A stretch of DNA of 64,000 nucleotides from an uncultured Gammaproteobacteria bacterium (GCA_964444415.1 CAYUHE010000004.1:7321-71320); one strand, 5' to 3'; numbered from the stretch's first letter, positions 1,256 through 64,000 are shown. Notes: a model not told the origin generated them from the letters alone. Numbers and translations: made by a program.

Positions 1256-3988
1256 ATGGCGTTAAGTTGGAATGAGATTAAGGATAGAGCTTTAAAGTTC
1301 TCGAAAGAGTTTGCGGATGCAACCAGAGAAAATGCGGAGACTCAAACCTTTTATAATGAGTTTTTTAATATCTTTGGGATTTCAAGAAGACGTGTAGCTT
1401 CTTTTGAAGAGCCTGTCAAAATGCTTGGAACTAGGAGAGGCAGAATAGACCTTTTTTGGAAGGGTGAACTGCTTGTAGAACAAAAATCCGAAGGAAGAGA
1501 CCTGAAAAAAGCTAAAGAACAAGCTTTGGACTACTTCCCCAATCTCAAAGAAGAAGAGCTTCCCAAATATATCCTAGTATCAGATTTTCAACATTTTGAA
1601 ATGTATGACCTCGATACAGGTGAAGTAAACAAATTCCTTTTGAAAGACTTACACAAAAACGTCAAATTATTCGCATTTATCGCAGGGTATAAAACCAAAA
1701 GCTACAAAGACGTAGAACCTGCAAGCATCAAAGCGGCTGAATTGATGGGTGAGCTATATGACCAACTAAGACTCTCTGGCTACCCTGAACATGATTTAGA
1801 GTTGTTTTTGACAAGAATTTTGTTTTGCCTTTTTGCAGATGATTCAGGTATTTGGGAAAAAGATATTTTGACCCAATATATTGAAGAAAGAACTGCTCCA
1901 GACGGCTCTGATTTGGGTTCTAAATTGACACATCTATTCCAAGTCCTGAATACTTCCAGAGAAAAACGCTCTGGCAATCTTGATGAGCATTTAGCTCGTT
2001 TCGAATATATTAACGGTTCATTGTTTAATAAGTCTGTTTTCATACCTGACTTTAACAGCGATATGCGAAAATCATTATTGAAGTGCTGTTACTACAATTG
2101 GTCAGATGTTTCGCCTGCAATTTTTGGTTCTTTGTTCCAATCTGTTTCTGACCCTGAAAAACGCAGAAACTTGGGTGAGCACTATACAAGCGAAAAAAAT
2201 ATTATGAAGCTCATAGAACCTTTGTTCCTTGATGAACTCAAAGAAGAATATGATAAGAGTAAACATAATGAGAAAAAGTTAAAAGAATTCCACCAAAAAC
2301 TTTCAACACTCAAATTTTTTGACCCTGCTTGTGGTTGTGGGAACTTTCTCGTAATAAGCTATAGAGAACTTCGAAAACTTGAAACTCTAGTCATTTTGGC
2401 TTTGGAAAAATTCAAAAAAGACTCAGGACAAATGAGAGTTGATGCAATGTCTTTATCTAAGGTTGATGTTGATAATTTTTATGGAATTGAAATTGAAGAA
2501 TTCCCTGCCAAAATTGCTGAAGTTGCAATGTGGATGACAGACCACTTGATGAACTTGGAGCTATCAGAGTCTTTGGGTCAGTTCTATTCTCGTATCCCTC
2601 TAAACAAATCAGCCAAAATAGTCAATGCAAACGCTTTAAGGATTGATTGGAAAGAAGCAGTTTCTCCTAATGAATTGACTTATATATTAGGTAATCCACC
2701 TTTTATAGGCAAATATATGCAAGGCGAAGAACAAACTGCTGACTTGATGAATGTTTTTTTGAATGTGAAAGGTGCAGGAGTTCTGGATTATGTAACTGCT
2801 TGGTATCTCAAAGCTGCCAAATACATCCAAAATACAAAAATAAAAGTTGCCTTTGTTTCTACAAACAGTATTTCGCAAGGTGAGCAAGTCGGAATATTAT
2901 GGAATGAGCTTTTTAGAATTTACGATATAAAAATCCACTTTGCACATAGAACCTTCAATTGGAGCAATGAGGCAAAAGGTAATGCTCATGTCCATTGTGT
3001 AATTATAGGATTTGCTAATTTTGATACTGACAAAAAATTACTTTTTGATTATGAAGATATAAAAGGCGATGCCCACGAAATTCAAGTCAAAAATATAAAC
3101 CCATATTTGGTTGATTATAATGACTTTGTAATAATGGCGAAATCTAATCCAATATGCAACGTAAATCCAATCATTGCTGGGGGAAAGCTTGTTGATGGCG
3201 GTCACTTAATTTTACATACTGAAGAAGAAAAGACCGATTTCATAAGCAGAGAGCCTGATTCTGAAAAATATATACATGAACTGGTTGGTGCTGAAGAATA
3301 TATAAACGGAGTAAAACGTTGGTGCTTATGGCTAAAAGGTGCTAACCCTCAAGATATTGCTAAAATGCCTTTGGTTATTGAAAGAATAAATAAAGTCAAA
3401 GAAATGAGGAAGAATAGCAAGAAAATAGCAACTCAAAAATTGGCAAATACCCCTTCCCTGTTTGCTGAAATAAAAAATATTGGAGAGAATTATTTATTAA
3501 TACCATTAACCTCTTCTGAAAACAGAAAATATATTCCTTTGGGATTTTTAGATAATAGTTATATTCCAACGAATAGTTGCTCCTTTATTCCTAATGCAAC
3601 TGCTTATGATTTTGGCGTTCTTACATCGGAAATGCATATGGTTTGGGTTAAATATACTTGTGGAAGATTAAAATCGGATTACAGATATTCAAATAGTATA
3701 GTTTATAATAATTACCCATTCCCAAAAGAAGTCTCTGACAGCAAAAAGAAAAAAGTGGAAGAAAAAGCACAAACAGTTTTGGATATCAGAGCCAAATACC
3801 CTGATTGTTCTTTGGCAGTCTTGTATAACCCTGAAACAATGCCACCAGATTTGATGAAAGCACATACAGAACTAGACAGAGCAGTCGATGTTTGCTATGG
3901 CAAAACATCTTTCAAGAACGAACGTGAACGCATAGAGTTCCTTTTTGCCCTGTATGAACAATACACAAAACCATTACTGAACCAGTAA
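1256..3988 (+). CDS. MmeI-family type IIL (IIG) restriction-modification enzyme: N-terminal PD-(D/E)xK nuclease fused to an N6-adenine methyltransferase and target-recognition domain
   Basis: 910 aa. The N-terminus MALSWNEIKDRALKFSKEF..RIDLFWKGELLVEQKSEGRDL matches the MmeI nuclease motif (D..ExK). SAM motif I is FFDPACGCGNFLV and motif IV is LGNPPFIGK. It looks colinear with MmeI along its whole length, judged from memory of that sequence. Confidence 0.9.
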   Translation: MALSWNEIKDRALKFSKEFADATRENAETQTFYNEFFNIFGISRRRVASFEEPVKMLGTRRGRIDLFWKGELLVEQKSEGRDLKKAKEQALDYFPNLKEEELPKYILVSDFQHFEMYDLDTGEVNKFLLKDLHKNVKLFAFIAGYKTKSYKDVEPASIKAAELMGELYDQLRLSGYPEHDLELFLTRILFCLFADDSGIWEKDILTQYIEERTAPDGSDLGSKLTHLFQVLNTSREKRSGNLDEHLARFEYINGSLFNKSVFIPDFNSDMRKSLLKCCYYNWSDVSPAIFGSLFQSVSDPEKRRNLGEHYTSEKNIMKLIEPLFLDELKEEYDKSKHNEKKLKEFHQKLSTLKFFDPACGCGNFLVISYRELRKLETLVILALEKFKKDSGQMRVDAMSLSKVDVDNFYGIEIEEFPAKIAEVAMWMTDHLMNLELSESLGQFYSRIPLNKSAKIVNANALRIDWKEAVSPNELTYILGNPPFIGKYMQGEEQTADLMNVFLNVKGAGVLDYVTAWYLKAAKYIQNTKIKVAFVSTNSISQGEQVGILWNELFRIYDIKIHFAHRTFNWSNEAKGNAHVHCVIIGFANFDTDKKLLFDYEDIKGDAHEIQVKNINPYLVDYNDFVIMAKSNPICNVNPIIAGGKLVDGGHLILHTEEEKTDFISREPDSEKYIHELVGAEEYINGVKRWCLWLKGANPQDIAKMPLVIERINKVKEMRKNSKKIATQKLANTPSLFAEIKNIGENYLLIPLTSSENRKYIPLGFLDNSYIPTNSCSFIPNATAYDFGVLTSEMHMVWVKYTCGRLKSDYRYSNSIVYNNYPFPKEVSDSKKKKVEEKAQTVLDIRAKYPDCSLAVLYNPETMPPDLMKAHTELDRAVDVCYGKTSFKNERERIEFLFALYEQYTKPLLNQ

Positions 3989-3997
3989 GGAAAAATA

Positions 3998-5095
3998 ATG
4001 CCACCTAAAGTAGAACAAAATTTTATAAATCTCACCCCTGAGCATATTATTCCAACGATTAAAACAGGTTTGAGTAATGTCGGGTTTTTGTTTGGAGCAG
4101 GCACTTCCCATGAAGCAGGCTTTCCTTTAACTTTAGGGCTTACAAAATCGGTTATAGAAAATCTTGATAATGCCAATGCTACTCATTTGCAATCAATTCT
4201 TGACGCAGAAAATAGAATCAACGGCACTAAAGATTCTCTAATTGAGGGAAAGTTTCCTGATATTGAAAGAATATTAAATCTTGTATTAGGACATAAATAT
4301 TCTACTACTGGGGATGAGCTTGAAAAATCTACAAAATTAGAAAAAGACATCAAAGATTCGATTGTTAAAGAATTAACGTCTATAAATAATCCTGACTTCA
4401 AAAATCATATAGAATTTCTATCAATAATTAAAAGAAAATATAATAATCAGCCAAAACCATTTTGGATTTTCACCACTAATTACGATATGCTTTTTGAAAC
4501 AGCAGCAATGTATCCAGAAATCTCTATAAGAAATGGTTTTGAAGGAATTGGGACAAGATATTTTAACCTTAATAAAATAGATGCGTCTCAAGGATTTCTT
4601 ACAGGACAACAATTTACTCCTTGCAAAGAATCATATTGTAATTTAATAAAATTACATGGTTCAGTTTCTTGGTACGAGCAAAAAGGGAAGGTATTTGAAA
4701 TCTTGGACAATAACAACCTTGATGAAGAATTTAACAGAGTTATGATACATCCGCAACAAACAAAAGTATCCGAGACTTATGCGATACCCTATCAAAATTT
4801 GTTTGATTATGCGAATAAGACATTAGGTAAAAATTGTAAATTTCTTGCGACCTGCGGATATAGTTTCAGAGATGAACATATTAATAATAGATTGCTTATT
4901 CCAAAACTAGAAAATGGCAGCCTTAGGATTGTAGCTATATTACAAACGTTACCAGATAATATAGCAGATTTTACAAAATATAACTGTTTCAACTATATTA
5001 CAGCAACAGAAGCACTTATAGATGGCACAAAATATCCGTTGGACAACTGTGATTTATGGAAATTTTCTAAATTTGTAGAATTCTTAAAAAGATAG
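3998..5095 (+). CDS. SIR2-like (SIR2_2 family) NADase component of a SIR2-HerA defence pair
   Basis: 365 aa with GFLFGAGTSHEAGFP (Rossmann Gly-rich loop), FTTNYDMLFE (catalytic Asn region) and IKLHGSVSW (catalytic His). Starts 9 bp after the MmeI-like stop. The RBS is AAGGAAAAATAATG. Confidence 0.85.
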   Translation: MPPKVEQNFINLTPEHIIPTIKTGLSNVGFLFGAGTSHEAGFPLTLGLTKSVIENLDNANATHLQSILDAENRINGTKDSLIEGKFPDIERILNLVLGHKYSTTGDELEKSTKLEKDIKDSIVKELTSINNPDFKNHIEFLSIIKRKYNNQPKPFWIFTTNYDMLFETAAMYPEISIRNGFEGIGTRYFNLNKIDASQGFLTGQQFTPCKESYCNLIKLHGSVSWYEQKGKVFEILDNNNLDEEFNRVMIHPQQTKVSETYAIPYQNLFDYANKTLGKNCKFLATCGYSFRDEHINNRLLIPKLENGSLRIVAILQTLPDNIADFTKYNCFNYITATEALIDGTKYPLDNCDLWKFSKFVEFLKR

Positions 5096-5107
5096 GAGAT
5101 ATTTACT

Positions 5108-6805
5108 ATGAGTACATATAAGATAGGTAAAGTTATTGGCGTTTGTGGCGAAAAACTAGAAATATCTCTTTTGCCTGAAGACCAAGATAAATCATTTGGC
5201 GTTCCTGAATGCATGAGTATTAATATTGATACTAAATTTGGTCCAAAACCATTATTGATTGGTCAACCTGGTACCTTTGTTAAGGTTGCAATTCCTAATG
5301 GAAATCTTCTATGTATGATAAGTGATATAAAAATGCAGGAAACAAACCCTTCTGCATTAGAGATTAAACAAGCCGCTGCTGATGATTCTTATATTTTAGA
5401 AACACCAAAAAGAATATTGATTGCATTACCATTTGGAACTATTTCAACAGATGAAAACTTTGAAAAAGGTACAGATATTTTCCCTACGGTAAATAGTGAT
5501 GTATTTGCCGTTTTACCAGAAACAATCGATAGAATCTATAGCAGTTATGCTGAAGGAATATTCAATCTTGGTAAGTTATCATTAGTCCCCGAGCAAGATG
5601 CCAAAATAAATCTAGATGCGTTTTTATCCAGACATGGTGCCATTTTAGGGCAAACTGGTAGCGGGAAGTCTTGGACTGTAGCTTCTTTTCTTCAAAAGAT
5701 TGCGGAACTAGAACAATCTACAATGGTATTATTTGACCTTCATGGTGAATATAAAAATGCTTTTGGTGATTATGCAGACTATATTGATGCTTCAGAAATT
5801 GAATTACCTTATTGGCTTATGAATAGTGAAGAATTATTGGATTTGATGGTGGATAGAGCAGAGTCAAGTGCTCCGAATCAAATAGCTGTTTTTCGAGACC
5901 TATTACAAAATGCCAAAAAAACACATCCTGAGAACATTGCATTAGATATTCCTGAAATCAATGTAGATACTCCTGTATATTTTGATTTTATGTCTATAAT
6001 AAATAAATTTGAATATTTAAATACAGAAATGGTTCAAGGTAAAACAAGCTTAAAGCAGGGCGATTTATATGGCAAATTTTCAAGATTGTTAATCAGGATA
6101 AAATCTAGGCTCGATGATGTTAGATATAATTTAATATTTAAACCTCAAACATATAATACATCTGCTTCAATGACAGATTTGTTTAGAAAAATTCTTGGTG
6201 AAGAAACCGTCCCTAAAAAATTAGTCATAATTGATATGAGTCCTATTCCATTTGATGTAAGAACATCCGTTATTTCATTGATAATGCGATGCCTTTTTGA
6301 TTTTTGCTATTGGCATAAAAAGTTATATGACAAATCTTATCCTATAGCGTTGTTTTGTGACGAAGCTCATATTTATTTGAAAGATAATGACCCTTCTTGT
6401 ACTTCAGCAAGAACTTCAGCTGAAAGAATTGCAAAAGAAGGTCGTAAATATGGTATCAGCCTTACTGTAATTAGTCAAAGACCAAGAGAGGTTTCAGCGA
6501 CAATACTATCTCAATGTAATACCTTTCTCTGTTTGCGAATTACAAACCCAGATGACCAATCATATGTAAAAAGGTTATTGCCTGATTCTGTTGCAGGTAT
6601 AGTAAATATGTTCTCTTCACTTAGAAGAGGTGAATGCATATTATTAGGCGATTCTGTAATAATGCCAACTCGAATTAAAATAGATAAACCAAATCCTCAG
6701 CCATCTAGTGAAGATACATCTTTTTATGAAGAATGGCAAAAATCTCATAGCGATATTGACGTGGGTAAAGTTCTGGATGCTTGGAGAAAACAATCTGTAC
6801 AATAA
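5108..6805 (+). CDS. herA: HerA-family (DUF87) hexameric ATPase, partner of the upstream SIR2
   Basis: 565 aa. Walker A LGQTGSGKSWTV, Walker B ALFCDEAHIYL, and the ISQRPREVSATILSQCNTFLCLRITNPDD motif typical of HerA/FtsK-like ATPases. There is a 12-bp gap after SIR2, and the RBS is TAGGAG. Confidence 0.88.
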   Translation: MSTYKIGKVIGVCGEKLEISLLPEDQDKSFGVPECMSINIDTKFGPKPLLIGQPGTFVKVAIPNGNLLCMISDIKMQETNPSALEIKQAAADDSYILETPKRILIALPFGTISTDENFEKGTDIFPTVNSDVFAVLPETIDRIYSSYAEGIFNLGKLSLVPEQDAKINLDAFLSRHGAILGQTGSGKSWTVASFLQKIAELEQSTMVLFDLHGEYKNAFGDYADYIDASEIELPYWLMNSEELLDLMVDRAESSAPNQIAVFRDLLQNAKKTHPENIALDIPEINVDTPVYFDFMSIINKFEYLNTEMVQGKTSLKQGDLYGKFSRLLIRIKSRLDDVRYNLIFKPQTYNTSASMTDLFRKILGEETVPKKLVIIDMSPIPFDVRTSVISLIMRCLFDFCYWHKKLYDKSYPIALFCDEAHIYLKDNDPSCTSARTSAERIAKEGRKYGISLTVISQRPREVSATILSQCNTFLCLRITNPDDQSYVKRLLPDSVAGIVNMFSSLRRGECILLGDSVIMPTRIKIDKPNPQPSSEDTSFYEEWQKSHSDIDVGKVLDAWRKQSVQ

Positions 6806-6930: not shown

Positions 6931-6959
6931 TTGACTTTTGCGAATGCTTTTGATAATAT
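6931..6959 (+). promoter_or_regulatory. Sigma70-type promoter TTGACT-17-TAATAT for the recombinase gene
   Basis: TTGACT (6931-6936), a 17-nt spacer, then TAATAT (6954-6959). It lies inside the ORF-track extension 6938-6988, which argues for the downstream start. Confidence 0.45.
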
Positions 6960-6988
6960 TCATTAAGTTACCAATGAAAGAACTTATT

Positions 6989-7585
6989 ATGAATACTAAA
7001 ACTTTTGGCTATTGCAGAGTTTCAACTTCTGAACAAAATGAAGATAGGCAAATAGAAGCGTTGAAAGAACTTGGAATCAATGAAAGAGATATTTTTATTG
7101 ATAAATGCAGTGGCAAAGATTTTGTAAGACCTCAGTATCAAGCTTTAAAAACACAATTGAGGGCAGGAGATGTTTTAATTATCAAATCGATTGACCGCTT
7201 GGGTAGAAATTATAAACAAATATGTGAAGAATGGCGTGAAATAACAACTGAAATCAAAGCAAATATTAGAGTGCTAGATATGCCTATGCTGGATACTACG
7301 AAAACAGAAGGTTTAATAGGTCAAGTTATCTCAGATATAGTTTTGCAGTTATTAGGCTATGTTGCGGAGCAAGAAAGAGCTTTTATTAGGCAAAGACAAG
7401 CGGAAGGTATAAAGATAGCCAAAGAAAAGGGCAAAAGACTTGGTAAGCCCCCTATTCAATATCCTGATAATTGGAATGAAGTTTATAAGATTTGGGCAAA
7501 AGAAGAAATTACAGCTAGAGAAGCTATGAAGAGGCTGAATCTAAAACCAACATCTTTTTATAAATTGGCGAAGAACTACAAATAA
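6989..7585 (+). CDS. Small serine recombinase (resolvase/invertase family) with C-terminal HTH
   Basis: MNTKTFGYCRVSTSEQNEDRQ (catalytic Ser motif), IIKSIDRLGRN, QRQAEGI, and a C-terminal HTH (ITAREAMKRLNLKPTSFYKL). The start is moved from 6938 to 6989 because of the promoter position and the usual family N-terminus. Confidence 0.88.
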   Translation: MNTKTFGYCRVSTSEQNEDRQIEALKELGINERDIFIDKCSGKDFVRPQYQALKTQLRAGDVLIIKSIDRLGRNYKQICEEWREITTEIKANIRVLDMPMLDTTKTEGLIGQVISDIVLQLLGYVAEQERAFIRQRQAEGIKIAKEKGKRLGKPPIQYPDNWNEVYKIWAKEEITAREAMKRLNLKPTSFYKLAKNYK

Positions 7586-7610
7586 TTATCCTGCTTATTT
7601 AACTATGGCT

Positions 7611-7656
7611 TCTTGTAAATTCTTTTTAATGTAGTAGCAACTTTTTACCTGTTTGG
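7611..7656 (+). repeat. 46-bp direct repeat, copy 1 (TCTTGTAAATTCTTTTTAATGTAGTAGCAACTTTTTACCTGTTTGG)
   Basis: 44/46 identical to 8494-8539. Begins 26 bp after the recombinase stop. Confidence 0.85.
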
Positions 7657-7698: not shown

Positions 7699-8349
7699 TT
7701 AGCTCTTCTTTTCTTCTTTACGTTTTTTTTCTGCTTCTAGGTAAATATCAAGTTGTTCAGGAAGTTGGACGATTTTTTTATGTAAGTCTTCAGTAAATTT
7801 TTGTTCTTTATCATATTTTTCGAGTAATTCTACAAATGTTTGAACAGAATTAGAAGAGCAATATTTTTGTAAATCTTCTTCACTAATAAGCGAGATAATG
7901 GAGTCAAAATCTTTTGAGGTCAATAGATTTGGAAGTTTAGAGGGGTCTTCTTGGTAAAAACTTCCATCTTCCTTATAAACTTTGAATGAGCTTATATTAC
8001 CGCTATCATCATTTGTTATGACACAGCCATAGGGGTATTTTGCACCCAAGTAATCACCTAGCATGGTATTATAATCTGATTTCATTTGCATTTCAGCTGT
8101 TTCTTGTAATCTTTCTAGTGGCGTCTGAGTTTCAATTCCACCAATAAGACCAAAAACAGAAGGGCTTTGCATCATAATATTTTCTTGTGAAGATTTTTGA
8201 ATAGAATCCGCGATATTAATTGATTCTGTTTGATATTTTTCCAACTTACATTTAAGTGTTTTTTCAAAATCAGATTGTAAAGTGCTAAAATCTTTTGTTT
8301 CTGTATTTGGCAAAATATTATTTTGAATTTGTGTAATTTCCGCAACCAT
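7699..8349 (-). CDS. Hypothetical acidic cytoplasmic protein (orphan)
   Basis: 216-aa ORF with protein-like composition and no recognisable motif. It is enclosed by the two 46-bp direct repeats. Confidence 0.6.
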   Translation of the reverse strand: MVAEITQIQNNILPNTETKDFSTLQSDFEKTLKCKLEKYQTESINIADSIQKSSQENIMMQSPSVFGLIGGIETQTPLERLQETAEMQMKSDYNTMLGDYLGAKYPYGCVITNDDSGNISSFKVYKEDGSFYQEDPSKLPNLLTSKDFDSIISLISEEDLQKYCSSNSVQTFVELLEKYDKEQKFTEDLHKKIVQLPEQLDIYLEAEKKRKEEKKS

Positions 8350-8493
8350 ATTTTATTCCCCCACCTATATTCCAAAGTTACTGATATGATACCAATATAA
8401 TTTTCACTTTTCACCCTCTATTTAATGGACTGCTTAACTAGCGTATTTAACTCTGGATGGTTATTGATGCTACAGATTAGGTTGTATTTGTCA

Positions 8494-8539
8494 TCTTGTA
8501 AATTCTTTTTAACGTAGTAGCAACTTTTTACTTGTTTGG
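8494..8539 (+). repeat. 46-bp direct repeat, copy 2
   Basis: TCTTGTAAATTCTTTTTAACGTAGTAGCAACTTTTTACTTGTTTGG. It lies 40 bp upstream of the ATG at 8579. Confidence 0.85.
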
Positions 8540-11334: not shown

Positions 11335-12068
11335 ACAATTGCAAGCCCTTTCTTAAAGTTAATGTAAAGGTTTAAGTCTTCAGGTGTTCCTGTTCCATGC
11401 ATTTGTTCTTTTTCAATATTGTATATGCCAAATTTCCCACCTTTTTCGATAGAATAATTATAGACAGGGGCGACATAAAACTCGTTATTAACTCTCTCAT
11501 TTCTTACAATCATATCAATAGCATTCTCAACAAAATCGCTACCTTTTGTAAAATAATAAATGCCGACTGTGGCAAAGTTTGAAATAACTTCTTTTTCACG
11601 AATCATAGTAATCAAATTATTTTCATCCAACTTTGCATAACTCCATTTGATATGGTCATCTTCAAAAGTCAAAATAGAACCATCAAGGTTGCGAGATTTG
11701 CAATCATTGACATAATCACTAATATTCATATCAACAATCTGGTCAGAATTTGCAATCAACAGAGGTATATTATTATTAATCAACCTATGCGAATGTAAAA
11801 CTGTACAAGCCGCACCTTCTGTCAATTTATCGATAAGAACAAACTCTACATTATAGTTATTTTCAATGAAATCAACTATCTCTTTCTCAGCTTCCATATG
11901 TTCTTTTCTGGCAAGCAGAATAAACTTTGCTTCTTCCATCTTAAGATTTTCTAAAACATGACAAATCATTGGTATTCCAAGAACATCTATAAAAGGTTTT
12001 GGTCTATCGTATCCTGCCTGTGAAAATCTTGAACCTGCTCCTGCCATAGGAATAACTATATTAATCAT
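11331..12068 (-). CDS. Sugar/alcohol-phosphate nucleotidyltransferase-like protein
   Basis: The N-terminal IVIPMAGAGSRFSQAGYDRPKPFIDVLGIPMI matches the NTP_transferase G-rich loop. Confidence 0.7.
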   Translation of the reverse strand: MINIVIPMAGAGSRFSQAGYDRPKPFIDVLGIPMICHVLENLKMEEAKFILLARKEHMEAEKEIVDFIENNYNVEFVLIDKLTEGAACTVLHSHRLINNNIPLLIANSDQIVDMNISDYVNDCKSRNLDGSILTFEDDHIKWSYAKLDENNLITMIREKEVISNFATVGIYYFTKGSDFVENAIDMIVRNERVNNEFYVAPVYNYSIEKGGKFGIYNIEKEQMHGTGTPEDLNLYINFKKGLAIV

Positions 12069-12799
12069 CTTTTTTCTCCCACTTGTTTTTGTAAGAATTG
12101 TTCGTATTGTTTTAAGCCTTCAACATTAGCTATTGAATGATATTGCTCCCTTGATATCTTATAAGTTGAAATCTTTTTTTGTTCCAAAATCATTTCGTTA
12201 AAGGCAGGGCAAACATAATAAAATCCATTAACATTGGCATCTTTTTTAATCATATTTGTCACAGAACTCACAAAATCACTGCCTTTTTTGTAATAATACG
12301 TTCCTGCTGTAGCATTTTTACTGATAGGACGCTTTTCACTAGCCTCAACTACGTCTCCGTTTTCATCGAGTTTTACATAGCTCCAACGAGGATGTACGGA
12401 TTCAAAAATTGCAGCACCTGCATCTTTACCTGCAAAGCTTTTCAGGAAATCTTTGTAATCCATATCTAAAATCTGGTCACCGTTCGTAATCAATAAAGGC
12501 TCATCATTGTTGATTTCATCAATGGCGAATAAAGCAGTACAAGCCGCACCTTTAGTCTCTTTTTCTACTTTGAAAATTTTGGCATTTGGAATTAAAAGTC
12601 TAATAACATTTTCTAAATACCATTTTTGAGCCTCTTCTTTTTTTACGATAAAAATAAAATCCGACTCAAATCCTGAAAGACTATTTATGAAATGCTCCAA
12701 TAAAGGTTTACCATTTATCTCCAGTAAATATTTAGGAAATTTGTAGCCTTCTTTTTCAAAATCTTCTGAACCACCTGCCATTAAAATAATTGTTTTCAT
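12065..12799 (-). CDS. Second nucleotidyltransferase-like protein (paralogue of 11331-12068)
   Basis: IILMAGGSEDFEKEGYKFPKYLLEINGKPLLEH, colinear with its neighbour (..GAACT.L...., NGDQI.DM). 4-bp overlap. Confidence 0.65.
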   Translation of the reverse strand: MKTIILMAGGSEDFEKEGYKFPKYLLEINGKPLLEHFINSLSGFESDFIFIVKKEEAQKWYLENVIRLLIPNAKIFKVEKETKGAACTALFAIDEINNDEPLLITNGDQILDMDYKDFLKSFAGKDAGAAIFESVHPRWSYVKLDENGDVVEASEKRPISKNATAGTYYYKKGSDFVSSVTNMIKKDANVNGFYYVCPAFNEMILEQKKISTYKISREQYHSIANVEGLKQYEQFLQKQVGEKR

Positions 12800-26917: not shown

Positions 26918-27982
26918 ATGACTATTAAAAAAGAAGGAAATAATAAGTGGTATTGTGAGTTCATGATTGATGGAATCCGATTCCATAAGGCTTGTAAAGG
27001 TGCTACCTCAGCTAAAGAAGCTCAACAATTTGAAAACTTATTACGTGCAGATATCATGCGTGGTGACATGAGGATGGTTGGCAAAAGAAAAAAGCACACT
27101 TTCAAGCAGGCAGTTGATTTGTACTTGCATTACTCAAAATTACACAAAAAAAGTTATCCAAATGATATCAACTCTACTAATCTTTTTGTTAATTTCTGGG
27201 GAGCCAATCATAGATTAGACCATATAACTCCTGCTAGTATCGAAGCATTTATAGAATCAATAAAAGAAAAGCAAATAGAGAAAAAAGTGCTATGTCCTAT
27301 AACAGAAGAAACTAAAATGGTAACCGAAACAAAAATATTGAAAAACGGCACTATTAATAGACATTTACAGGCTTTGAGTAAACTTTTCAACATAGCTATT
27401 TCAAATAAATTATTGAGTGAAAATCCGATGAAAGGGGTGCCAAAATTAAAAGAAAATAACTACAAAACAAGGTATTTAACAAAAGAAGAACAGGTTAGAT
27501 TATTTGAACAGCTTGGTGATGGCTATTTATCTTTAGTGGTTTTATGTGCCTTGCACACGGGTATGAGGCGTTCTGAGATTTTAAAGCTCAAATGGTCTTG
27601 TATAGATTTTTCAAAAAATTATATTGAATTGCTAGAAACCAAAAGTTACAAATCAAGAAAGATACCTTTGTCTAGCATTTTAAAGGAAAAACTGCAAAAT
27701 ATGAAAGTCCTATCAGATTATGTGTTTACAAATCCTAAGACTATGAAGCCCTATAATGATTTCGGGAATGCTTTTGAAAGTGCTTTAGAACGTGCAGGTA
27801 TAGATGATTTTGTATTTCATGACCTTCGTCACTCCGCAGCTACTCGCATGGTTGAAAAGGGTATAGATTTGGTCGTGGTAAAAGAACTTCTCGGACATTC
27901 AAGTATTGTTACAACTGTTCGTTACGCTCATGCAGTTAGTGAAATTAAGTCAAAAGCAATAGAACTTTTGTCAGAGTATTAA
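26918..27982 (+). CDS. int: Tyrosine recombinase / phage-type integrase
   Basis: Catalytic R (GMRRSEIL), HDLRHSAATRM, LLGHSSIVTTVRYAH (H..R..H..Y). Confidence 0.9.
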   Translation: MTIKKEGNNKWYCEFMIDGIRFHKACKGATSAKEAQQFENLLRADIMRGDMRMVGKRKKHTFKQAVDLYLHYSKLHKKSYPNDINSTNLFVNFWGANHRLDHITPASIEAFIESIKEKQIEKKVLCPITEETKMVTETKILKNGTINRHLQALSKLFNIAISNKLLSENPMKGVPKLKENNYKTRYLTKEEQVRLFEQLGDGYLSLVVLCALHTGMRRSEILKLKWSCIDFSKNYIELLETKSYKSRKIPLSSILKEKLQNMKVLSDYVFTNPKTMKPYNDFGNAFESALERAGIDDFVFHDLRHSAATRMVEKGIDLVVVKELLGHSSIVTTVRYAHAVSEIKSKAIELLSEY

Positions 27983-28058
27983 TATTTTAATCATACTGTA
28001 ATTATTTTTGTATTACACAAATATTACACAAGAAAGATTTACAAAAGCTTAAGAGAAA

Positions 28059-28132
28059 TACCCTGGACAGGATTCGAACCTGTGACCTACCGCTTAGAAG
28101 GCGGTCGCTCTATCCAACTGAGCTACCAAGGC
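28059..28132 (-). tRNA. tRNA-Arg (anticodon TCT)
   Basis: Hand-folded: GCCTTGG TA GCTC AGTTGGATA GAGC G ACCGC CTTCTAA GCGGT AGGTC ACAGG TTCGAAT CCTGT CCAGGGT A. The anticodon loop is C-T-TCT-A-A. CCA is not encoded. G1-U72 and U4-G69 are wobble pairs. Confidence 0.88.
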
Positions 28133-28216
28133 ATTTGTTGAAGTTGTTTTATTTTCACTCAGTTTTATAGAGCGTTTTCTCTATACCTTTTGCAAGCTGT
28201 TTGCTTACAAAGCCTC

Positions 28217-30323: not shown

Positions 30324-30352
30324 TTCATTTTATTTTGTCAGTATTATGTTTT

Positions 30353-30449
30353 TTGGAATACTGACAGCTTACCTCACTAAGCTTTCGCTTCGACGTGAGC
30401 TTCGCAAGGACGAGTTTCAGGCTTTGCCCCCACTCTAGTCAGATTTCAC
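30353..30449 (+). repeat. Structured TIR repeat, copy A (shortened)
   Basis: TTGGAATACTGACAGC ... CTAGTCAGATTTCAC, with an internal GGC-TTT-GCC hairpin. Member of the A/C/E subfamily. Confidence 0.8.
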
Positions 30450-30452
30450 TTC

Positions 30453-30558
30453 TTGGAATATTTGACAGTTCAAAAGACTTCATTCCATTACGCTTTTAAA
30501 AAAGCTTCATTTCAACGTCTTTTTCACAAGGCGAGTTTCACTCCCGTCAAAATCCGCC
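30453..30558 (+). repeat. Structured TIR repeat, copy B (tandem to A)
   Basis: TTGGAATATTTGACAG ... CCCGTCAAAATCCGCC, with the central palindrome GCTTTTAAAAAAGC. Aligns with copy D. Confidence 0.8.
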
Positions 30559-30592
30559 TTTATATATTCTTTACTTGTCCTGCTGTATATTC

Positions 30593-30601
30593 TGTTATAA
30601 T
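30593..30601 (+). promoter_or_regulatory. Candidate extended -10 promoter (TGtTATAAT) for glmS
   Basis: TGTTATAAT lies 35 nt upstream of the GTG start. Confidence 0.4.
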
Positions 30602-30635
30602 GTACACATAAATAGTAAAAAAGAGGGCATCAATA

Positions 30636-54608: not shown

Positions 54609-56060
54609 ATGTCCGAAGTTACTTTGGATAAACCTTTTCACGAACAAAGAGAAGATTTAGAAAATATTTGGAACAAAACATTAAAAAATCTGGGCGATGA
54701 AATGCCTCACTCAAAATTTGAGGCTTGGATTAGGCCTATTGAGCCTGTGTCTATTGAAAAAAAGACACTCACAATCGCTACCAATGATACTTTGAGCAAA
54801 GAATGGATTTCAAAAAACTATAAAGAGCTTATTGGAGAAACGCTAAAAGGTGTTACGGGTCGCAAGCATAACCTCGAAATTATTCTCAAAAAAGATGCAA
54901 ATTTGACAGAGAGAAAACCCTTCAAGGTTGAACGTCAAAAATCAGAAACCGTTTCTATTCCTGTTGTTGAGGCAAAAGAAAATAAAGATGAATTTCAAAT
55001 TAATGCACTTCGCAGTATGTCGTGCAATTTGAATTTGAAATATACTTTTGATACTTTTGTTGTCGGAGAGAATAACAAATTTGCGTTTAATGCAGCCTTG
55101 GCAGTTGCCAAAAATCCTGCTCAAAATCACAATCCGTTATTTATTTATGGCGGTTCAGGACTTGGAAAAACACATTTGATGCAAGCAATAGGGCATTATA
55201 TTTTGGTCAATCACCCAAATCTCAAAGTTCGCTACACAAATACAGAAGCATTTATGAATGAGCTTGTAAACAGTATTCGTGCAGGTGCCAGTTCAACTGC
55301 AAAAATGGCAGAGTTCAGATACAAATATCGCCATGTCGATGTATTTTTGATTGATGATATTCAGTTTTTGGAATCCAAAAAACATACCCAAGACGAGATT
55401 TTTCACACTTTTGAATATCTCTACAATTCAGGCAAGCAAATTATTATAACAAGTGACAGACCTCCAAAAGCTATTCCTACTTTGACAGATAGGCTCAGAA
55501 GTCGTTTTGAATGGGGACTTTTGGCAGATGTTCAGGCTCCTGATTTTGAGACTCGTTCAGAGATTTTGAACCAAAGAGCTCAAAGAGAAGGTATTGAAGT
55601 TTCCAACGATGTTGTGGGCTTTATCGCTAAAGCTTGCCAGAGCAATGTACGTGAGCTTGAGGGCGCATTAAACAGACTTATGGCATATTCGAGCATCAAT
55701 AACATGCCAATCAATCTCGAGTCTGCTCAGAGCGTTTTAGGGGTCGAAACTTTCAGGCCAAGTTTAAACATTGAAAAAATTCTTGAAGCGACAGGCGAAT
55801 TCTTTGGAATTTCGAAAGATGATATCAAAAGTCCTTCAAAAGCCAAAGAGATTTCACACGCAAGACAAGTAGGAGTATACCTTTCAAGGGATTTGATTAA
55901 AGCAAGCTTCCCTTCAATCGGGAATTGTTTTGGCGGCAGAAAGCACACTACTATTATGTATTCTTTTGAAAAAGTCCAAACTCAAATGGAAAAGAACATG
56001 CTTTTAAAAGAGCAGGTTACTGATTTAAGCAGATTGCTTGCTCAAAAGTACTCTAGATAG
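54609..56060 (+). CDS. dnaA: Chromosomal replication initiator DnaA
   Basis: YTFDTFVVGENNKFA, IYGGSGLGKTHLMQAIG, FLIDDIQFL, SDRPP, NVRELEGAL, and the domain IV KDDIKSPSKAKEISHARQVGVYLSRDL. Confidence 0.95.
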   Translation: MSEVTLDKPFHEQREDLENIWNKTLKNLGDEMPHSKFEAWIRPIEPVSIEKKTLTIATNDTLSKEWISKNYKELIGETLKGVTGRKHNLEIILKKDANLTERKPFKVERQKSETVSIPVVEAKENKDEFQINALRSMSCNLNLKYTFDTFVVGENNKFAFNAALAVAKNPAQNHNPLFIYGGSGLGKTHLMQAIGHYILVNHPNLKVRYTNTEAFMNELVNSIRAGASSTAKMAEFRYKYRHVDVFLIDDIQFLESKKHTQDEIFHTFEYLYNSGKQIIITSDRPPKAIPTLTDRLRSRFEWGLLADVQAPDFETRSEILNQRAQREGIEVSNDVVGFIAKACQSNVRELEGALNRLMAYSSINNMPINLESAQSVLGVETFRPSLNIEKILEATGEFFGISKDDIKSPSKAKEISHARQVGVYLSRDLIKASFPSIGNCFGGRKHTTIMYSFEKVQTQMEKNMLLKEQVTDLSRLLAQKYSR

Positions 56061-56739: not shown

Positions 56740-56897
56740 GCAAAAATCGCTTCGTCATTCCGAACTTGTTTCGGAATCTTATTATCTTTGCTCTCTGCGG
56801 AGCAAATAGGCAATAAAAAACGGGACTTTCGCCCCGCTTTTTGAATATTTGAGATTGCTTCGGCATTTGCCTCGCAATGACGTTTTGGGTTTCGTGT
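56740..56897. repeat. Hairpin-rich repeat block between the groEL-distal repeat C and the upstream gene
   Basis: Hairpins: ATTCCGAA-CTTGT-TTCGGAAT (56757-56777), TTGCTC-TCTGCG-GAGCAA (56788-56805), and AAAAAACGGGACTTTCGCCCCGCTTTTT (56815-56842, terminator-like on both strands), plus TTGCTTCGGCATTTGCCTCGCAATGACG. Confidence 0.6.
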
Positions 56898-56898
56898 C

Positions 56899-57022
56899 TT
56901 GAAATACCAGCAGCTCATCTCCTTTCACTTCGTTACGGTTTTGCTTCCGCAAAATCCTTCACTCCGATGGGAGTTTCGCTAGGACGGCGTTCGGGCTTTG
57001 CCCTCAGCCTTACTGGATTTCA

Positions 57023-57023
<1 letters not shown>
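56899..57023 (+). repeat. Structured TIR repeat, copy C (last base is the first base of CTA, the complement of the groEL TAG stop)
   Basis: TTGAAATACCAGCAGCTCATCTCCTTTCACTTCG..GGTTTTGC-TTCC-GCAAAATCC..ACTCC-GAT-GGGAGT..GGACGGCGTTC GGGC-TTT-GCCC TCAGCCTTACTGGATTTCAC. Confidence 0.85.
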
Positions 57024-58696
<1,673 letters not shown>

Positions 58697-59047: not shown

Positions 59048-59211
59048 GGGCTTCCTCCATTTACTCTAACTTTGTCAACTATAACATAAAAGATTTTTAT
59101 CTTTATGACAAAAACTCTTTATATAAGTTATAGTACAATTTTTGAAAATTTAGAGTTAATTTAAGAAAATTTTAATATTTTGATTAATTTATAAAAAGTT
59201 GATTCCGCTTC

Positions 59212-59321
59212 TTGGAATACCTGACAGCTCAACCTGCTTCACTCCATTTCGCTTTTTTATAAAAAAGCTACATTCCATCTTAGGTTTCGCATGGCGAGTT
59301 GCATTCCCGTCAGGATTCCGC
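59212..59321 (+). repeat. Structured TIR repeat, copy D (abuts the TAG stop of orf69)
   Basis: TTGGAATACCTGACAGCTC..GCTTTTTTATAAAAAAGC..GGCGAGTTGCATTCCCGTCAGGATTCCGC. Preceded by a partial tail, GATTCCGC, at 59201-59208. Confidence 0.8.
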
Positions 59322-59530
59322 TAATATTTTTCCTCAATCTTTTTCAAGCTTTTATAAAATTCCCCGTATCTCACAAATAGAGGCGTTTCCCAAACATTTT
59401 TTTCTACAGGTGTGTTTGTTAGTTTTTTGGCTTCTAAATTTAGAGCCTTTAATCCCACAGGTTCATCATTTTGAGTCAAAAATTTTAGAATCCTTTTCAT
59501 GTATTTCTCCGATAGTTTATGTAGTAACAT
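59321..59530 (-). CDS. Hypothetical small protein (69 aa)
   Basis: ORF only. Lysine-rich and plausible in composition. Stop codon is TAG. Confidence 0.4.
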   Translation of the reverse strand: MLLHKLSEKYMKRILKFLTQNDEPVGLKALNLEAKKLTNTPVEKNVWETPLFVRYGEFYKSLKKIEEKY

Positions 59531-60858: not shown

Positions 60859-60877
60859 GGCACATCCGTAAATATAG

Positions 60878-60926: not shown

Positions 60927-62645
60927 CTAGTGTTTTTTGTGTTTTTTATCTTTTTCGTATTGCTGGATTCCGGGGAAGTCGTTGTGCCCTGTGGTTCTTT
61001 GTGTCATCCAGTATTGAATTTTTGGAATTGCAGTAGATAAGAAATATCCTGAAACAGCCATTCCTGCTCCCCAATAGCCGAATCTTGTTATCAAGTTTCT
61101 TGTTTTCATTTTACTTAAGAAGTCTTTAGAAATTTTGTCCAAGTTTTCTTTTTTAGCTTGATCTAAGACACTTTGAGCATAGTCATTAATGAACTTACGT
61201 TGTGCATCGACTTTCTTTTGAGGAATGAATTTAATAGGATTCATGGCTTTCCCGCCAGTTGAATCATCAATCAATTTATTGATAAATTCAGGCTCATTGA
61301 GCATTCCGTCATTGAACAAGTTTGTCAATTGAGACTTGGTCAAAATGTTTCCAGGCTGAAGTTTAGACAATTTTGAAGCTTTGTCTTTTAATGATTTCGC
61401 TGAATTTGCATCAGAAATGTTTTCTTCGATGAATTTATGCATTTTATCAACGGAGACAATATGTTTAGTTTTATCAAAAATATTGCCAGCTTTATTAAAG
61501 ACATCATCATTGACTTGCCTTGTACCGAAAACTTTTTTCTCAAAATCGGATTTAGAGATTTCTTTTTGGTCTTTGCCAAAGAGATTCATCAATTTTGCAT
61601 GCAAATCATCAGCTCTATCGGGCGAAAGTTCTGTATTTTTGCCTTTTAAGCTATCGAGTAAGCATAATCCTTTGTAAATCAAAGGAGTGGCCCCTACATA
61701 AAAGAAAGAAGAAGTTATATCTCGGAATAAGATTTCTCTTTGTTCATATTCATTTCTTGCGTTGACTGCACGACCTGCGAATAAACCTGAATCTATGGTC
61801 AAAAGTTGAGCTATATTATTATTTTCCAGCTGATGAGCTGCTATTTCGAAGAAGTTACCACCTTGGAATTTGGGGTCACCTGCACTGCCTCGTGACATGG
61901 TTAAAAATTCGTTTGTCTCCATTACTTTTGGAGGATTGTTTGATAATTTTTTGGGGTCACCGGCACTGCCACGTGACATGGTCAAAAATTCGTTTGTTTC
62001 CATTACGTTTGGAGGATTATTTGACAATCTTTTTGGGTCACCGGCGCTGCCTCGTGACATGGTCAAAAATTCGTTTATGTCAGTCCGTCTTTGTTGACGG
62101 TGTTCTATTTTGATTGGCTGTATGTGACTTCCGGTTTGTTGTTCTTTTTTATCCAGCATATTTTTTGTGATTTTTTGGTTGATTTTAGGCAATACAAAAC
62201 CCATGAAGCCTACTGAAATAGCGGCGCTTGCAGCTATTTTTGAAAATTTTAAAGCTGCAATGGAATTTTTTTTGGTTTTGCTTAATTTTTCAGTAACATG
62301 CTCAAATGGCTGTCTGACATGGTCATTTCCTGTGTCGAAATTGAAATCTTTAACGCCAGTTTTTTCTTTGATTTTACCGACTTTGTCTATCAAGAAATCA
62401 AAAGCTTTATTTACGGTTTTAATTCCCCAAAGCCAGATTACAGCTGAAATGGACTCTTCTATAAGACGTTCTCTTGCTTCTATATCACCGCCACGTTTTT
62501 TTGCTTGATAAGTTCGTCCTATCATAACTGTTGTTTCAAGCAAAATAATAGGTAAAAGTGCCCCAGGAGTGCACAATTTTGATGCAAAAGTTCTTACATT
62601 TTTGTTATTTGCAAAATTATTAATGTTGTTTGTTATTTTACTCAA
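60927..62645 (-). CDS. Hypothetical membrane protein, paralogue of 39037-40503, carrying an internal 27-aa tandem repeat
   Basis: Conserved N- and C-terminal blocks are shared with the 488-aa paralogue. The insert is NEFLTMSRGSAGDPK(R/K)LSNNPP(N/K)VMET repeated. Confidence 0.7.
   Translation of the reverse strand: MSKITNNINNFANNKNVRTFASKLCTPGALLPIILLETTVMIGRTYQAKKRGGDIEARERLIEESISAVIWLWGIKTVNKAFDFLIDKVGKIKEKTGVKDFNFDTGNDHVRQPFEHVTEKLSKTKKNSIAALKFSKIAASAAISVGFMGFVLPKINQKITKNMLDKKEQQTGSHIQPIKIEHRQQRRTDINEFLTMSRGSAGDPKRLSNNPPNVMETNEFLTMSRGSAGDPKKLSNNPPKVMETNEFLTMSRGSAGDPKFQGGNFFEIAAHQLENNNIAQLLTIDSGLFAGRAVNARNEYEQREILFRDITSSFFYVGATPLIYKGLCLLDSLKGKNTELSPDRADDLHAKLMNLFGKDQKEISKSDFEKKVFGTRQVNDDVFNKAGNIFDKTKHIVSVDKMHKFIEENISDANSAKSLKDKASKLSKLQPGNILTKSQLTNLFNDGMLNEPEFINKLIDDSTGGKAMNPIKFIPQKKVDAQRKFINDYAQSVLDQAKKENLDKISKDFLSKMKTRNLITRFGYWGAGMAVSGYFLSTAIPKIQYWMTQRTTGHNDFPGIQQYEKDKKHKKH
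61871..62076 (-). repeat. 81-bp in-frame tandem repeat, about 2.5 copies
   Basis: GGTCAC register at 61874, 61955 and 62036 (period 81). Encodes NEFLTMSRGSAGDPK three times. Confidence 0.9.
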
Positions 62646-62774: not shown

Positions 62775-62806
62775 AAAGAGAGAGAACTAATTAGTTCTCT
62801 CTCTTT
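62775..62806 (-). terminator. Perfect 16+16 bp palindrome; terminator for glgP on the minus strand
   Basis: AAAGAGAGAGAACTAA|TTAGTTCTCTCTCTTT. The minus-strand RNA would end ..GUUCUCUCUCUUUUCAG. Confidence 0.7.
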
Positions 62807-62820
62807 AATCTTGATTTGTC

Positions 62821-62944
62821 TTGGAATACTGACAGCTCATCTCCTTTCACTTCGCTTTACTTTGCTTTTGCAAAGAGTCGCTACGTCAGGAATTTCGCTG
62901 GGACGGCGTTCCGCGCTATGCGCTTCAGCCTTGTCAGATTCCGC
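62821..62944 (+). repeat. Structured TIR repeat, copy E (abuts the TAG stop of glgP)
   Basis: TTGGAATACTGACAGCTCATCTCCTTTCACTTCG..CTTTGC-TTTT-GCAAAG..GGACGGCGTTCC GCGC-TAT-GCGC TTCAGCCTTGTCAGATTCCGC. Confidence 0.85.
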
Positions 62945-64000
62945 TACTTTATATTTGAGAAAGTCCAAGCATCCAAGTTTGGATTTTCAGCTACTCTTAC
63001 ATCAGCTGTAGCATCTCCTTCTTCTTTTCCGCCTTTAGCAATCGGGTTGTACAATCTGTTGTAATACTCGATTACCATACGATCAGAGTTGAAGTAAGCT
63101 TCAGATGTTTTGATAGCATTTTTCATCAAAGTAGCCCATTTATTTTTGTCGCTATAATAAGTTGGGATAATGTCATTTTCTATGATGCCCATAATGCATT
63201 CATAATCTTTCCAGTGACGTTCTTCCCAAGCGATATCCTCATCAAGTCCTGGATAATTGACAGTATAGCCGTTCAATCCTGTGAATGTACCTTCTACAGC
63301 CCATCCGTCATAGATTGACAAGTGCAAAGCACCGTTCATATTAGCTGACATTCCAGAAGTTCCTGATGCTTCAAAGGGTCTTAGCGGTGTATTCATCCAA
63401 ACATCAGTACCTCTTTTAAGCAATCCGCTCAATTTAAGTTCGTAATTTGGAAGAACAACAACGTTTCTCAAATCATAAGAATGTTTCAAGATATTATTGA
63501 ACATTTCACGACCCATAGTATCATCCGGATGGAATTTGCCAGAGAATATAAGTTGAACTTTATTTTCATTTAATAGCTTAGTGATTCGATCTTTGTCCAT
63601 AAAGATCATCCAAGCACGTTTGTAATCAGCAAATCTTCTTGCCCAAGTAATTGTCAAAACATCAGGATCAAAACGTTTTCCTGTTGTATCGGCAATATAT
63701 TCGAACAATTCTTTTTTCATTTCACGTTTTGCAGCTAACAATTCCTTGTTGCTTTTTGAAACGTCCATTCTTTTGTCTTGCCAGTAGTGAAGGTTTACAG
63801 CGTTAGTTATTGCTCTAATCGGGCAACGTCCTTCAACCCATTCCCACATTTTGTTGGCAACTAAGCCGTGCAACTGAGATACGGCATTAGCCAAACGGCT
63901 CAATCTCAATGCTGCGACTGTAAGTGAGAAGTTTTCGCCACCAAGACCAACAGCTTGTTGTCTTGTTAATCCTGCGAAGAAACCGCCTTCTAGCAAAGTA
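62944..64000 (-). CDS. glgP: Alpha-glucan phosphorylase family protein (GT35), C-terminal part; N-terminus lies beyond the window
   Basis: ..NAVNLHYWQ.., KFHPDD, and the FEASGTSGMSANMNGALHLSIYDGW block. The frame stays open past the Met at 63996 to base 64000. Confidence 0.88.
   Translation of the reverse strand, partial: TLLEGGFFAGLTRQQAVGLGGENFSLTVAALRLSRLANAVSQLHGLVANKMWEWVEGRCPIRAITNAVNLHYWQDKRMDVSKSNKELLAAKREMKKELFEYIADTTGKRFDPDVLTITWARRFADYKRAWMIFMDKDRITKLLNENKVQLIFSGKFHPDDTMGREMFNNILKHSYDLRNVVVLPNYELKLSGLLKRGTDVWMNTPLRPFEASGTSGMSANMNGALHLSIYDGWAVEGTFTGLNGYTVNYPGLDEDIAWEERHWKDYECIMGIIENDIIPTYYSDKNKWATLMKNAIKTSEAYFNSDRMVIEYYNRLYNPIAKGGKEEGDATADVRVAENPNLDAWTFSNIK

Follow-up and report, generated by a model that had tools for sequence, protein, structure and literature searches.

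A previously undescribed family of small, hairpin-forming and apparently mobile elements in uncultured gut-type Gastranaerophilales

The repeats analyzed here are a previously undescribed family of small hairpin-forming elements, apparently mobile, in uncultured gut-type Gastranaerophilales. We consider them to be probably (roughly 0.55) non-autonomous mobile repeats that are co-transcribed with the upstream gene as structured 3' UTRs, with protection or processing of mRNA 3' ends as the likely effect. Most copies stand immediately behind a stop codon, where they would form a folded tail of the transcript. The family is new and its lineage is little studied; its kind is broadly known, and its insertion habits are odd. 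Gastranaerophilales are uncultured, non-photosynthetic relatives of the cyanobacteria, and to our knowledge almost nothing is known of their non-coding genome.

Copies of the repeat and their host lineage

The window, that is, the whole stretch of 64,000 nucleotides (64 kb) that was analyzed, has a G+C content of 34%. Five copies of the repeat (A to E) had been reported in it by an initial annotation, and all five were recovered with an offset of at most 3 nt (Table 1). A profile HMM built from the five copies and run over the 64 kb gave five matches, all on the plus strand, with E-values from 2.4e-36 to 4.8e-25, while the best match beyond them had E>3. With filters off, a covariance model scored the five copies at 83–125 bits and a sixth match at 15 bits, so the five-copy set lies far beyond chance expectation. 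The heads TTGGAATA..TGACAG with their inverted tails, the long blocks common to C and E and the subfamily formed by B and D were all found in the sequence as described. It also holds that no transposase stands beside the copies; the recombinases of the window are one serine resolvase and one generic tyrosine integrase.

The closest GroEL and GlmS proteins (92–95% identity) are encoded on metagenomic contigs, their named relatives belong to Candidatus Gastranaerophilales, and the sole match to the repeat in the genome collection is a Gastranaerophilales MAG (L001). The window comes from Gastranaerophilales (Melainabacteria) DNA. Related DNA of about 250 kb was obtained from pattern scans and from syntenic loci reached via GroEL and GlmS homologues. 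The initial annotation had staked the family on the existence of further copies, and about 14 more are present in these contigs. Full copies were found in L001, L002, L003, L004, L009, L015 and L016; L007 carries a short form of 70 nt, L010 an array with four model matches, and L016 truncated or degenerate copies as well. The density is about one copy per 15–20 kb over the roughly 310 kb sampled. Most copies are only 57–77% identical in pairwise comparison, and most are therefore old.

In Rfam 15, no match to the elements of the window reached the gathering threshold, and nothing fell on the elements at E-values up to 10. Searches of the plasmid and phage collections and of viral contigs, by blastn and a pattern scan, found nothing similar, and a plasmid, phage or viral origin was rejected. 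One match from the metagenome scan (L005, 58% GC) was discarded as a chance match.

Table 1. Positions of the repeat copies, of adjoining features and of other features in the window and in related contigs (L numbers)
Feature	Position	Strand	Remark
Copy E	62819..62945	-	Full element, 125 bits; three-way junction on minus (mRNA-sense) strand
TAG stop of alpha-glucan phosphorylase ORF (62944..63996)	62944..62946	-	Overlaps 5' end of copy E
Degenerate remnant directly 3' of copy E	62810..62820	-	Resembles the element's own 5' end (RNA sense)
Intrinsic-terminator hairpin after copy E, 14 bp	62775..62806	-	-20.5 kcal/mol, z -4.6
Copy D, short-P2 subfamily	59210..59322	-	Starts on G of TAG stop of 69-aa ORF 59321..59530
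9-nt partial copy GATTCCGCT (59201-59209) and 19-nt extension (59182-59200)	59182..59209	-	Beside copy D
TAATATTTT, 9-bp direct repeat, left copy	59173..59181	.	Flanks whole D composite; right copy 59322-59330
Copy C	56897..57024	-	Starts on G of groEL TAG stop (57023-57025)
Degenerate partial copy behind C	56846..56896	-	Contains conserved hairpin GUCAUUGCGAGGCAAAUGCCGAAGCAAUCUC (56851-56881)
groEL intrinsic terminator hairpin and U tract	56815..56842	-	-16.7 kcal/mol, z -4.3
Copy B, short-P2 subfamily	30451..30558	-	Second unit of head-to-tail pair; antisense to 61-aa ORF and glmS
Copy A, shortened P3	30351..30450	-	First unit of A/B pair on plus strand
Degenerate partial copy GTCAGTATTATGTTTTT	30337..30353	-	Plus-strand 5' side of A
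Serine resolvase	6938-7585		Window
Tyrosine integrase, generic	26918-27982		Window; beside tRNA-Arg
MmeI-type restriction-modification enzyme	1256-3988		Probable island
SIR2-like and HerA-like genes	3998-5095 and 5108-6805		Probable island; resemble defence pair
tRNA-Arg(TCT)	28058-28133		Adjoins tyrosine integrase
Second insert family	L007 ~7800-7905, ~11830-11960; L006 ~1720-1830, ~7730-7940; L015 ~530-630; L009 ~11920-12080		Sequence-unrelated to the repeat

Other parts of the window also deserve mention. The segments 1256-6805 and 26918-28133 probably form a genomic island. Two 51-nt direct repeats, 92% identical (7606-7656 and 8489-8539), follow the serine resolvase/invertase gene and bracket a 216-aa ORF with no Pfam match, and the segment 6938-8539 may be a recombination module. 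Moreover, three tandem 81-nt repeats at 61869-62111 (90% and 74% identity) encode a 27-residue protein repeat within a 572-aa ORF (60927..62645), which has no Pfam match.

Predicted fold and covariation

On the minus strand of the window, all copies are predicted to fold into one three-way junction, which consists of three helical parts in an element of 70–140 nt. First, P1 is the closing helix of 11–12 bp, which pairs both ends of the element and has one conserved bulged U. Second, P2 is a hairpin of the form GAG-UGA-(optional inner stem-loop)-GAAA-CUC, whose inner part is missing in the B/D subfamily. Third, P3 is a long hairpin broken by purine-rich loops of the GYGAAR type; its base is a two-pair helix GY/RC, followed by the 5-bp helix P3a, above which a large purine-rich internal loop encloses a further two-pair helix and leads to the terminal hairpin P3c. 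In all 12 clean copies the mRNA-sense strand, corresponding to the window's minus strand, folds better than its complement, by 1.5–12.8 kcal/mol.

RNAalifold predicted 25 pairs, 16 of them with compensatory changes. Across 26 named pairs, 93.6% of the cells are paired against 76.6% in column shuffles (none of 500 shuffles reached 93.6%), double changes occur at 17 pairs against 10.9 expected, and pairing falls to 28–48% in slid controls, where the partners were moved by 1–3 columns. P3a, which has 11 distinct sequences in 12 copies, is paired in 59 of 60 cases within a copy and in 47% between copies, and the inner stem of P2 is paired in 31 of 31. The long-range helices, with arms 50–110 nt apart, covary too. 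Unpaired junction and loop positions (GCGAAR, GAGUGAAR and UGAGCU) are more conserved than the inner stems, at 0.78 versus 0.62. These counts bear out the earlier statements that the internal hairpins are kept by compensating changes and that the structure is kept while the sequence drifts. In a DNA palindrome, compensating changes can also be produced by hairpin-templated repair, without selection on RNA.

The two ends of the element, which had been described as terminal inverted repeats and which correspond to P1, are indeed inverted repeats, but their inner half varies by compensating changes (CUGAC/GUCAG, CCAGU/GCUGG, UUGGC/GCCAA and CGGGC/GCCCG). Since the arms vary in this way, P1 behaves as a helix and not as the sequence-specific site of a transposase. 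Likewise, the sequence CATCTCCTTTC, which had drawn attention for its likeness to the anti-Shine-Dalgarno tail, is present in C (56916-56926) and E (62838-62848) but in those two copies only, and it is not a feature of the family. The idea built on it was rejected: GAAAGGAGAUG, also confined to C and E, is the 3' strand of P3a, whose sequence differs in nearly every copy, and because CATCTCCTTTC is one strand of this hypervariable, covarying helix, the match is incidental. Two known RNA motifs were dismissed as well. The UGA-stem-GAAAC arrangement resembles half of a hammerhead core, and CUGANGA and the UH catalytic positions are missing; the GA loops do not have the sizes of a K-turn.

Position, gain and loss of the elements

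On the minus strand, the first base of C, D and E is in each case the G of a TAG stop, with CTA at their plus-strand end. The gene before C is groEL (57023..58678), the first base of E completes the stop codon of the alpha-glucan phosphorylase gene, and D lies upstream of the groES promoter region. The same overlap of TAG stop and element start is seen at groEL in L009 and L015 and at one ORF of L002. Intrinsic terminators follow C and E, and as both copies lie between stop codon and terminator they are inside the 3' UTR; from this position they would be transcribed with the upstream gene. The 3'-UTR location proposed earlier is right for C, D and E, at their TAG stops, but does not extend to A and B, which lie antisense between the conserved 61-aa ORF and glmS. 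The L004 and L001 copies lie beyond a terminator or far from a stop codon, so not every copy is a 3' UTR.

Among loci between co-oriented genes, nine have the element in sense with the upstream gene and two in antisense. The nine are C, D and E of the window, those of L001–L004 (with flanking ORFs predicted by an ORF scan), the groEL copy of L015 and L016 952-1035; the two are the A/B site, common to the window and L010, and a degenerate copy in L016. This antisense array and the degenerate copy count against our preferred explanation. The fixed orientation noted at the outset is thus a real bias but one that follows the strand of the upstream gene, with A/B as an exception, and the one-strand pattern of the window is mostly due to the strand of its upstream genes. 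The GC skew of the window follows gene strand, and dnaA (54609-56060) lies between the A/B pair and C–E, all of which share one orientation. Near-matches to the DnaA box number 22 in the window against 19 expected, which is no enrichment, and they form no cluster; nor are promoter-like or terminator-like sites enriched at the elements.

Filled, empty and footprint states were found at five syntenic loci, namely the groEL, phosphorylase, small-ORF, glmS-upstream and 545-aa-gene sites. At the groEL stop, the window and L009 have long-P2 elements, 68% identical to each other, together with a conserved hairpin; L015 has a short-P2 (D-type) element; L007 has only a footprint, TAG-CTCCAAGAC; and L006 and the outgroup L016 have a common, element-free (ancestral) UTR. 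This distribution points to independent strikes on the same stop codon. At the phosphorylase stop, the window has E, L007 the 70-nt form and L006 the footprint CGGATT-CAAGAC; the site is vacant in L009, L015 and L016. At the D site the element is present in the window only, and L006, L009 and L015 are empty, reading GAAAAATATTA|AAATTT. The D composite (complete element, second start of 9 nt and a further 19 nt) is enclosed by the 9-bp direct repeat TAATATTTT, which is single-copy in these three empty sites; the segment beside D may be read as the remnant of an older insertion, with a homologous remnant in L007.

Spread has also been recent. Copy D of the window and the groEL element of L015 stand at non-orthologous sites and are 91% identical, with groEL coding sequences that are 88% identical, which suggests that the element spread once these genomes had diverged, or across that divergence. 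Upstream of glmS in L010, a unit Y lies inside the P2 loop of a unit X, its immediate neighbor being GAGTTTCGC, a sequence similar to the end of the element itself (GATTYCGC). The resulting X[Y]X block of 235 nt has been duplicated, and the two copies differ by a single mismatch.

Three further observations concern the same sites. The hairpin GUCAUUGCGAGGCAAMUGCCGAAGCAAUCUC of the groEL 3' UTR (window 56851-56881, minus strand; L007 11665-11698; L009 11788-11821) is nearly invariant in the three genomes, whose groEL coding sequences differ by 9–14%. It persists where no more than a footprint of the repeat is left, and it resembles P2 of the repeat in its stem, GA/GAA internal loop and inner stem. 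The end of the groEL coding sequence in L006 and L015, GGC GGA ATG ATG TAG, contains GCGGAAT, with which the repeat also begins (its first seven bases). The motif lies 13 nt upstream of where the element went in, and the match may be a coincidence or may be part of the reason why the groEL stop was struck more than once. The spacer between glmS and the 61-aa ORF (30324-30635) is variable, with two units in the window, the four model matches in L010, a 187-aa gene in L012, and a 241-aa gene together with an 855-aa flagellin-like gene in L013.

It is possible, though unlikely, that the host selects these elements as functional RNAs, whose loop-bearing (AGYGAAR) junction would, in 3' UTRs, be a platform to which a protein or processing enzyme binds, or which would serve as 3'-UTR-derived sRNAs; spread would then be only occasional, by duplication or recombination, and mobility secondary. 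Conserved loops beside helices that covary freely form the classic signature of functional RNAs, and the better fold of the sense strand in 12 of 12 copies, the bias towards sense orientation and the element kept at the groEL stop of the window and L009 through many compensating changes, at 68% identity, agree with it. However, the elements are dispensable, sister genomes being without them at every site examined with footprints remaining; the flanking genes (groEL, phosphorylase, small ORFs and glmS) are unrelated, antisense copies and arrays exist, the elements have neither promoter nor terminator of their own, and no Rfam family corresponds to them. The initial annotation had left the choice between a functional RNA/DNA element and an orientation-specific MITE. 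For the former, the fold and its covariation stand, and anatomy and covariation suggest an RNA function; for the latter, presence and absence, independent strikes on one site, nesting and fresh duplication support a mobile unit but not a MITE in the strict sense.

Insertion layout and relation to known repeats

Every full copy is preceded on the plus strand by a partial or degenerate copy of its own 3' end; in RNA sense, a 5' fragment follows it. The 5' fragments of L003 (59 nt) and L001 (38 nt) are identical to the neighboring full copy, those of L002 and behind C of the window are about 40 nt long and diverged, and those of D, E, A and L004 measure 9–17 nt. As these lengths vary, one end of the insert is exact and the other variable. 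Read most simply, each new copy would go in precisely at a resident copy's 5' end (RNA sense), after which the resident would decay; alternatively, a tandem or circular template would be copied over more than one unit length. Target-site duplications, sought over all filled/empty pairs, were inconsistent: there is the 9-bp repeat at the D composite, no clear sign at the groEL insertion of L015, and only 3–4 nt or similarity to the own end at the flank of the nested L010 insertion.

According to our preferred explanation, that of a mobile repeat carried in 3' UTRs, new copies would land in transcribed intergenic DNA in one of two ways. They would insert directly after TA, often the TA of a stop codon, where the first G of the element makes TAG, or directly before a sequence resembling the element's own 5' end, and the latter would generate head-to-tail arrays and older, decaying 5' fragments behind intact copies. 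Sense copies, with C and E between stop and terminator, would be transcribed in the mRNA of the upstream gene and would fold into a stable 3'-UTR structure, and mRNA 3'-end protection or processing, as described for REP, ERIC, Correia and bcr1, would be the likely effect. Both the effect at the RNA level and a trans-acting enzyme are putative.

At least one further family of small structured intergenic inserts, here called the second family, occurs in the same contigs and is unrelated in sequence. It starts with ATTYNCGGATRTG, contains GACGTAARAG and ends with CACAGGAGCAT; a 15-bp direct repeat with the sequence of this start encloses it at L007 ~7800-7905. It has the same full-plus-partial layout as the repeat studied here, and a solo start piece lies in the window at 60861-60875.

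The fold might instead serve the mobility of DNA, as a single-stranded substrate or lox/attC-like site for an HUH/rolling-circle enzyme or a tyrosine recombinase, in which case copying would start at a fixed end and stop imprecisely and the RNA structure would be a by-product. We regard this as rather unlikely. It would account for the one end that is always exact and the other with 9–59 nt of a second partial unit, which in L001 and L003 matches the adjacent copy exactly, for the 19-nt extra segment at D and for the nested copy right beside GAGTTTCGC. The extrahelical base conserved in P1 and the junction of tandem units, a 13-bp/7-bp/13-bp palindrome like a recombinase core site, are also in its favor, as is the second family with its like layout. 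But no such enzyme adjoins any copy, the integrase of the window is generic and tRNA-linked (84 bits, where the integron-integrase model has its cut-off at 265 bits), the R boxes of attC are missing, the varying sequences of the P1 arms argue against sequence-specific arm recognition, and the right-hand flanks are unlike a second recombinase arm except at E.

It is improbable that the copies are decaying, functionless remnants of MITEs, paired by hairpin-templated mutation only and positioned where insertions are tolerated. The age of most copies (57–77% identity) and the common footprints and truncated copies would suit such remnants, and the short spacers between stop and terminator offer few neutral TA sites, which would inflate the apparent preference for stop codons. 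On the other hand, unpaired loops are more conserved than stems, helices 50–110 nt apart covary as well, orientation is biased, and the recent 91%-identical pair indicates that the family is still active. Independent small-RNA genes with promoters and terminators of their own are highly improbable: a size of 100–130 nt and a stable fold are typical of small RNAs, but C, D and E begin inside a stop codon, so that a promoter would not fit, P1 is not followed by a U tract, and promoter-like or terminator-like sites are not enriched at the elements.

By analogy, the family is filed as working like REP, ERIC, Correia and bcr1 while belonging to none of them, as it lacks their defining features. The bcr1 repeat of the Bacillus cereus group (~155 bp) is transcribed, has an RNA structure kept by compensatory changes and shows a genomic distribution that is not conserved between close strains (PMC3184786). 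The present family is likewise dispersed, non-coding and mobile-looking, its RNA structure has compensatory changes, and its transcription would follow from its position. However, bcr1 has a constant 5-bp flanking direct repeat and two independent stem-loops, whereas the present family has a three-way junction closed by its ends and no constant duplication, belongs to another taxon and has no sequence similarity to bcr1.

Correia/NEMIS elements of Neisseria (100–155 bp) resemble the present family: they are small, have inverted ends, are co-transcribed with their neighbors, form RNA hairpins and have no known transposase. Each of their ends shows a TA duplication, and they also carry an IHF site. 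Their ends read TA-TAGTGGATT...ATCAGGACAA (PMC5039591), to which the outermost bases of the present repeat, TA-GCGGAATCTGACAAGG, bear a short apparent resemblance, and they have a sequence-conserved inverted repeat of 26 bp, TATAGYGGATTAAC... (PMC5039591). Membership was rejected, as only about the first 9 bases of the 26-bp repeat are alike and the distal end has no TA; moreover, the helix arms vary in the present family and the interior architecture differs.

REP/BIME are structured extragenic repeats in transcribed regions that can alter mRNA stability (PMC3184786). REPs are GC-rich and 20–40 nt long, carry GTAG or CGTC as a tag and are associated with RAYT genes (PMC3733652). The present units are three-way junctions of 100–130 nt with no GTAG/CGTC tag and were not assigned to this group. 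ERIC/IRU and YPAL of enterobacteria are also structured extragenic repeats of transcribed regions with effects on mRNA stability, and the present family probably acts like ERIC, YPAL and REP. Nevertheless, ERIC is one long imperfect palindrome, and neither ERIC/YPAL nor REP/BIME has the stop-codon abutment or the full-plus-partial layout seen here. Mycobacterial MIRU form head-to-tail arrays between the genes of operons, oriented with the genes, and their ends overlap the stop codon that closes the gene before them; they differ in being tandem units of 46–101 bp that carry small ORFs, with no closing helix or three-way junction.

Integron attC sites are imperfect palindromes of 57–141 bp in which structure is conserved over sequence and bases are extrahelical; they lie right behind ORFs in one orientation and recombine at their own ends. 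They were excluded, as the present elements have no RYYYAAC/GTTRRRY (R''/R') boxes, the window integrase stays below the TIGR02249 cut-off, and the flanking genes are syntenic core genes and not cassettes. A PATE of the IS200/IS605 type was excluded as well: the two ends pair together in P1 and do not form separate subterminal hairpins, the flank of a new copy resembles the element's own end, and naive targets share only TA. A PATE of this type has no inverted ends and inserts 3' of a fixed 4–5 nt target, with no duplication. As for classical MITEs, presence/absence polymorphism between related genomes is evident, a target-site duplication of fixed length is not found at every copy, and the ~310 kb contain neither a transposase, nor a full-length insertion sequence with the same ends, nor a longer parent element, end-motif scans of all loci having given chance matches only.

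Standard transposition explains none of three features: that elements abut exactly on stop codons, that one site was used repeatedly and independently, and that a new copy lands before the end of an old one. These features could point to an undescribed insertion mechanism. One tentative and rather doubtful proposal is that the fold, as RNA or single-stranded DNA, is the substrate of an enzyme, copied from a fixed start and re-inserted at stop codons or before its own 5' end. If this were true, the elements would be a self-targeting, structure-defined mobile class, rolling-circle-like or guide-like and not yet described in bacteria, and the same rule would hold for the second family of these genomes, which is unrelated in sequence.

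Extrapolated from the density, a genome of a few Mb would hold on the order of a hundred copies, and the covariance model can serve for annotating the elements and for avoiding mis-called ORFs across them. Highly expressed genes, groEL among them, have copies in their 3' UTRs. Should the fold stabilize or process mRNAs, the family would add a layer of post-transcriptional tuning across the genome, one that differs by gain and loss among close strains.
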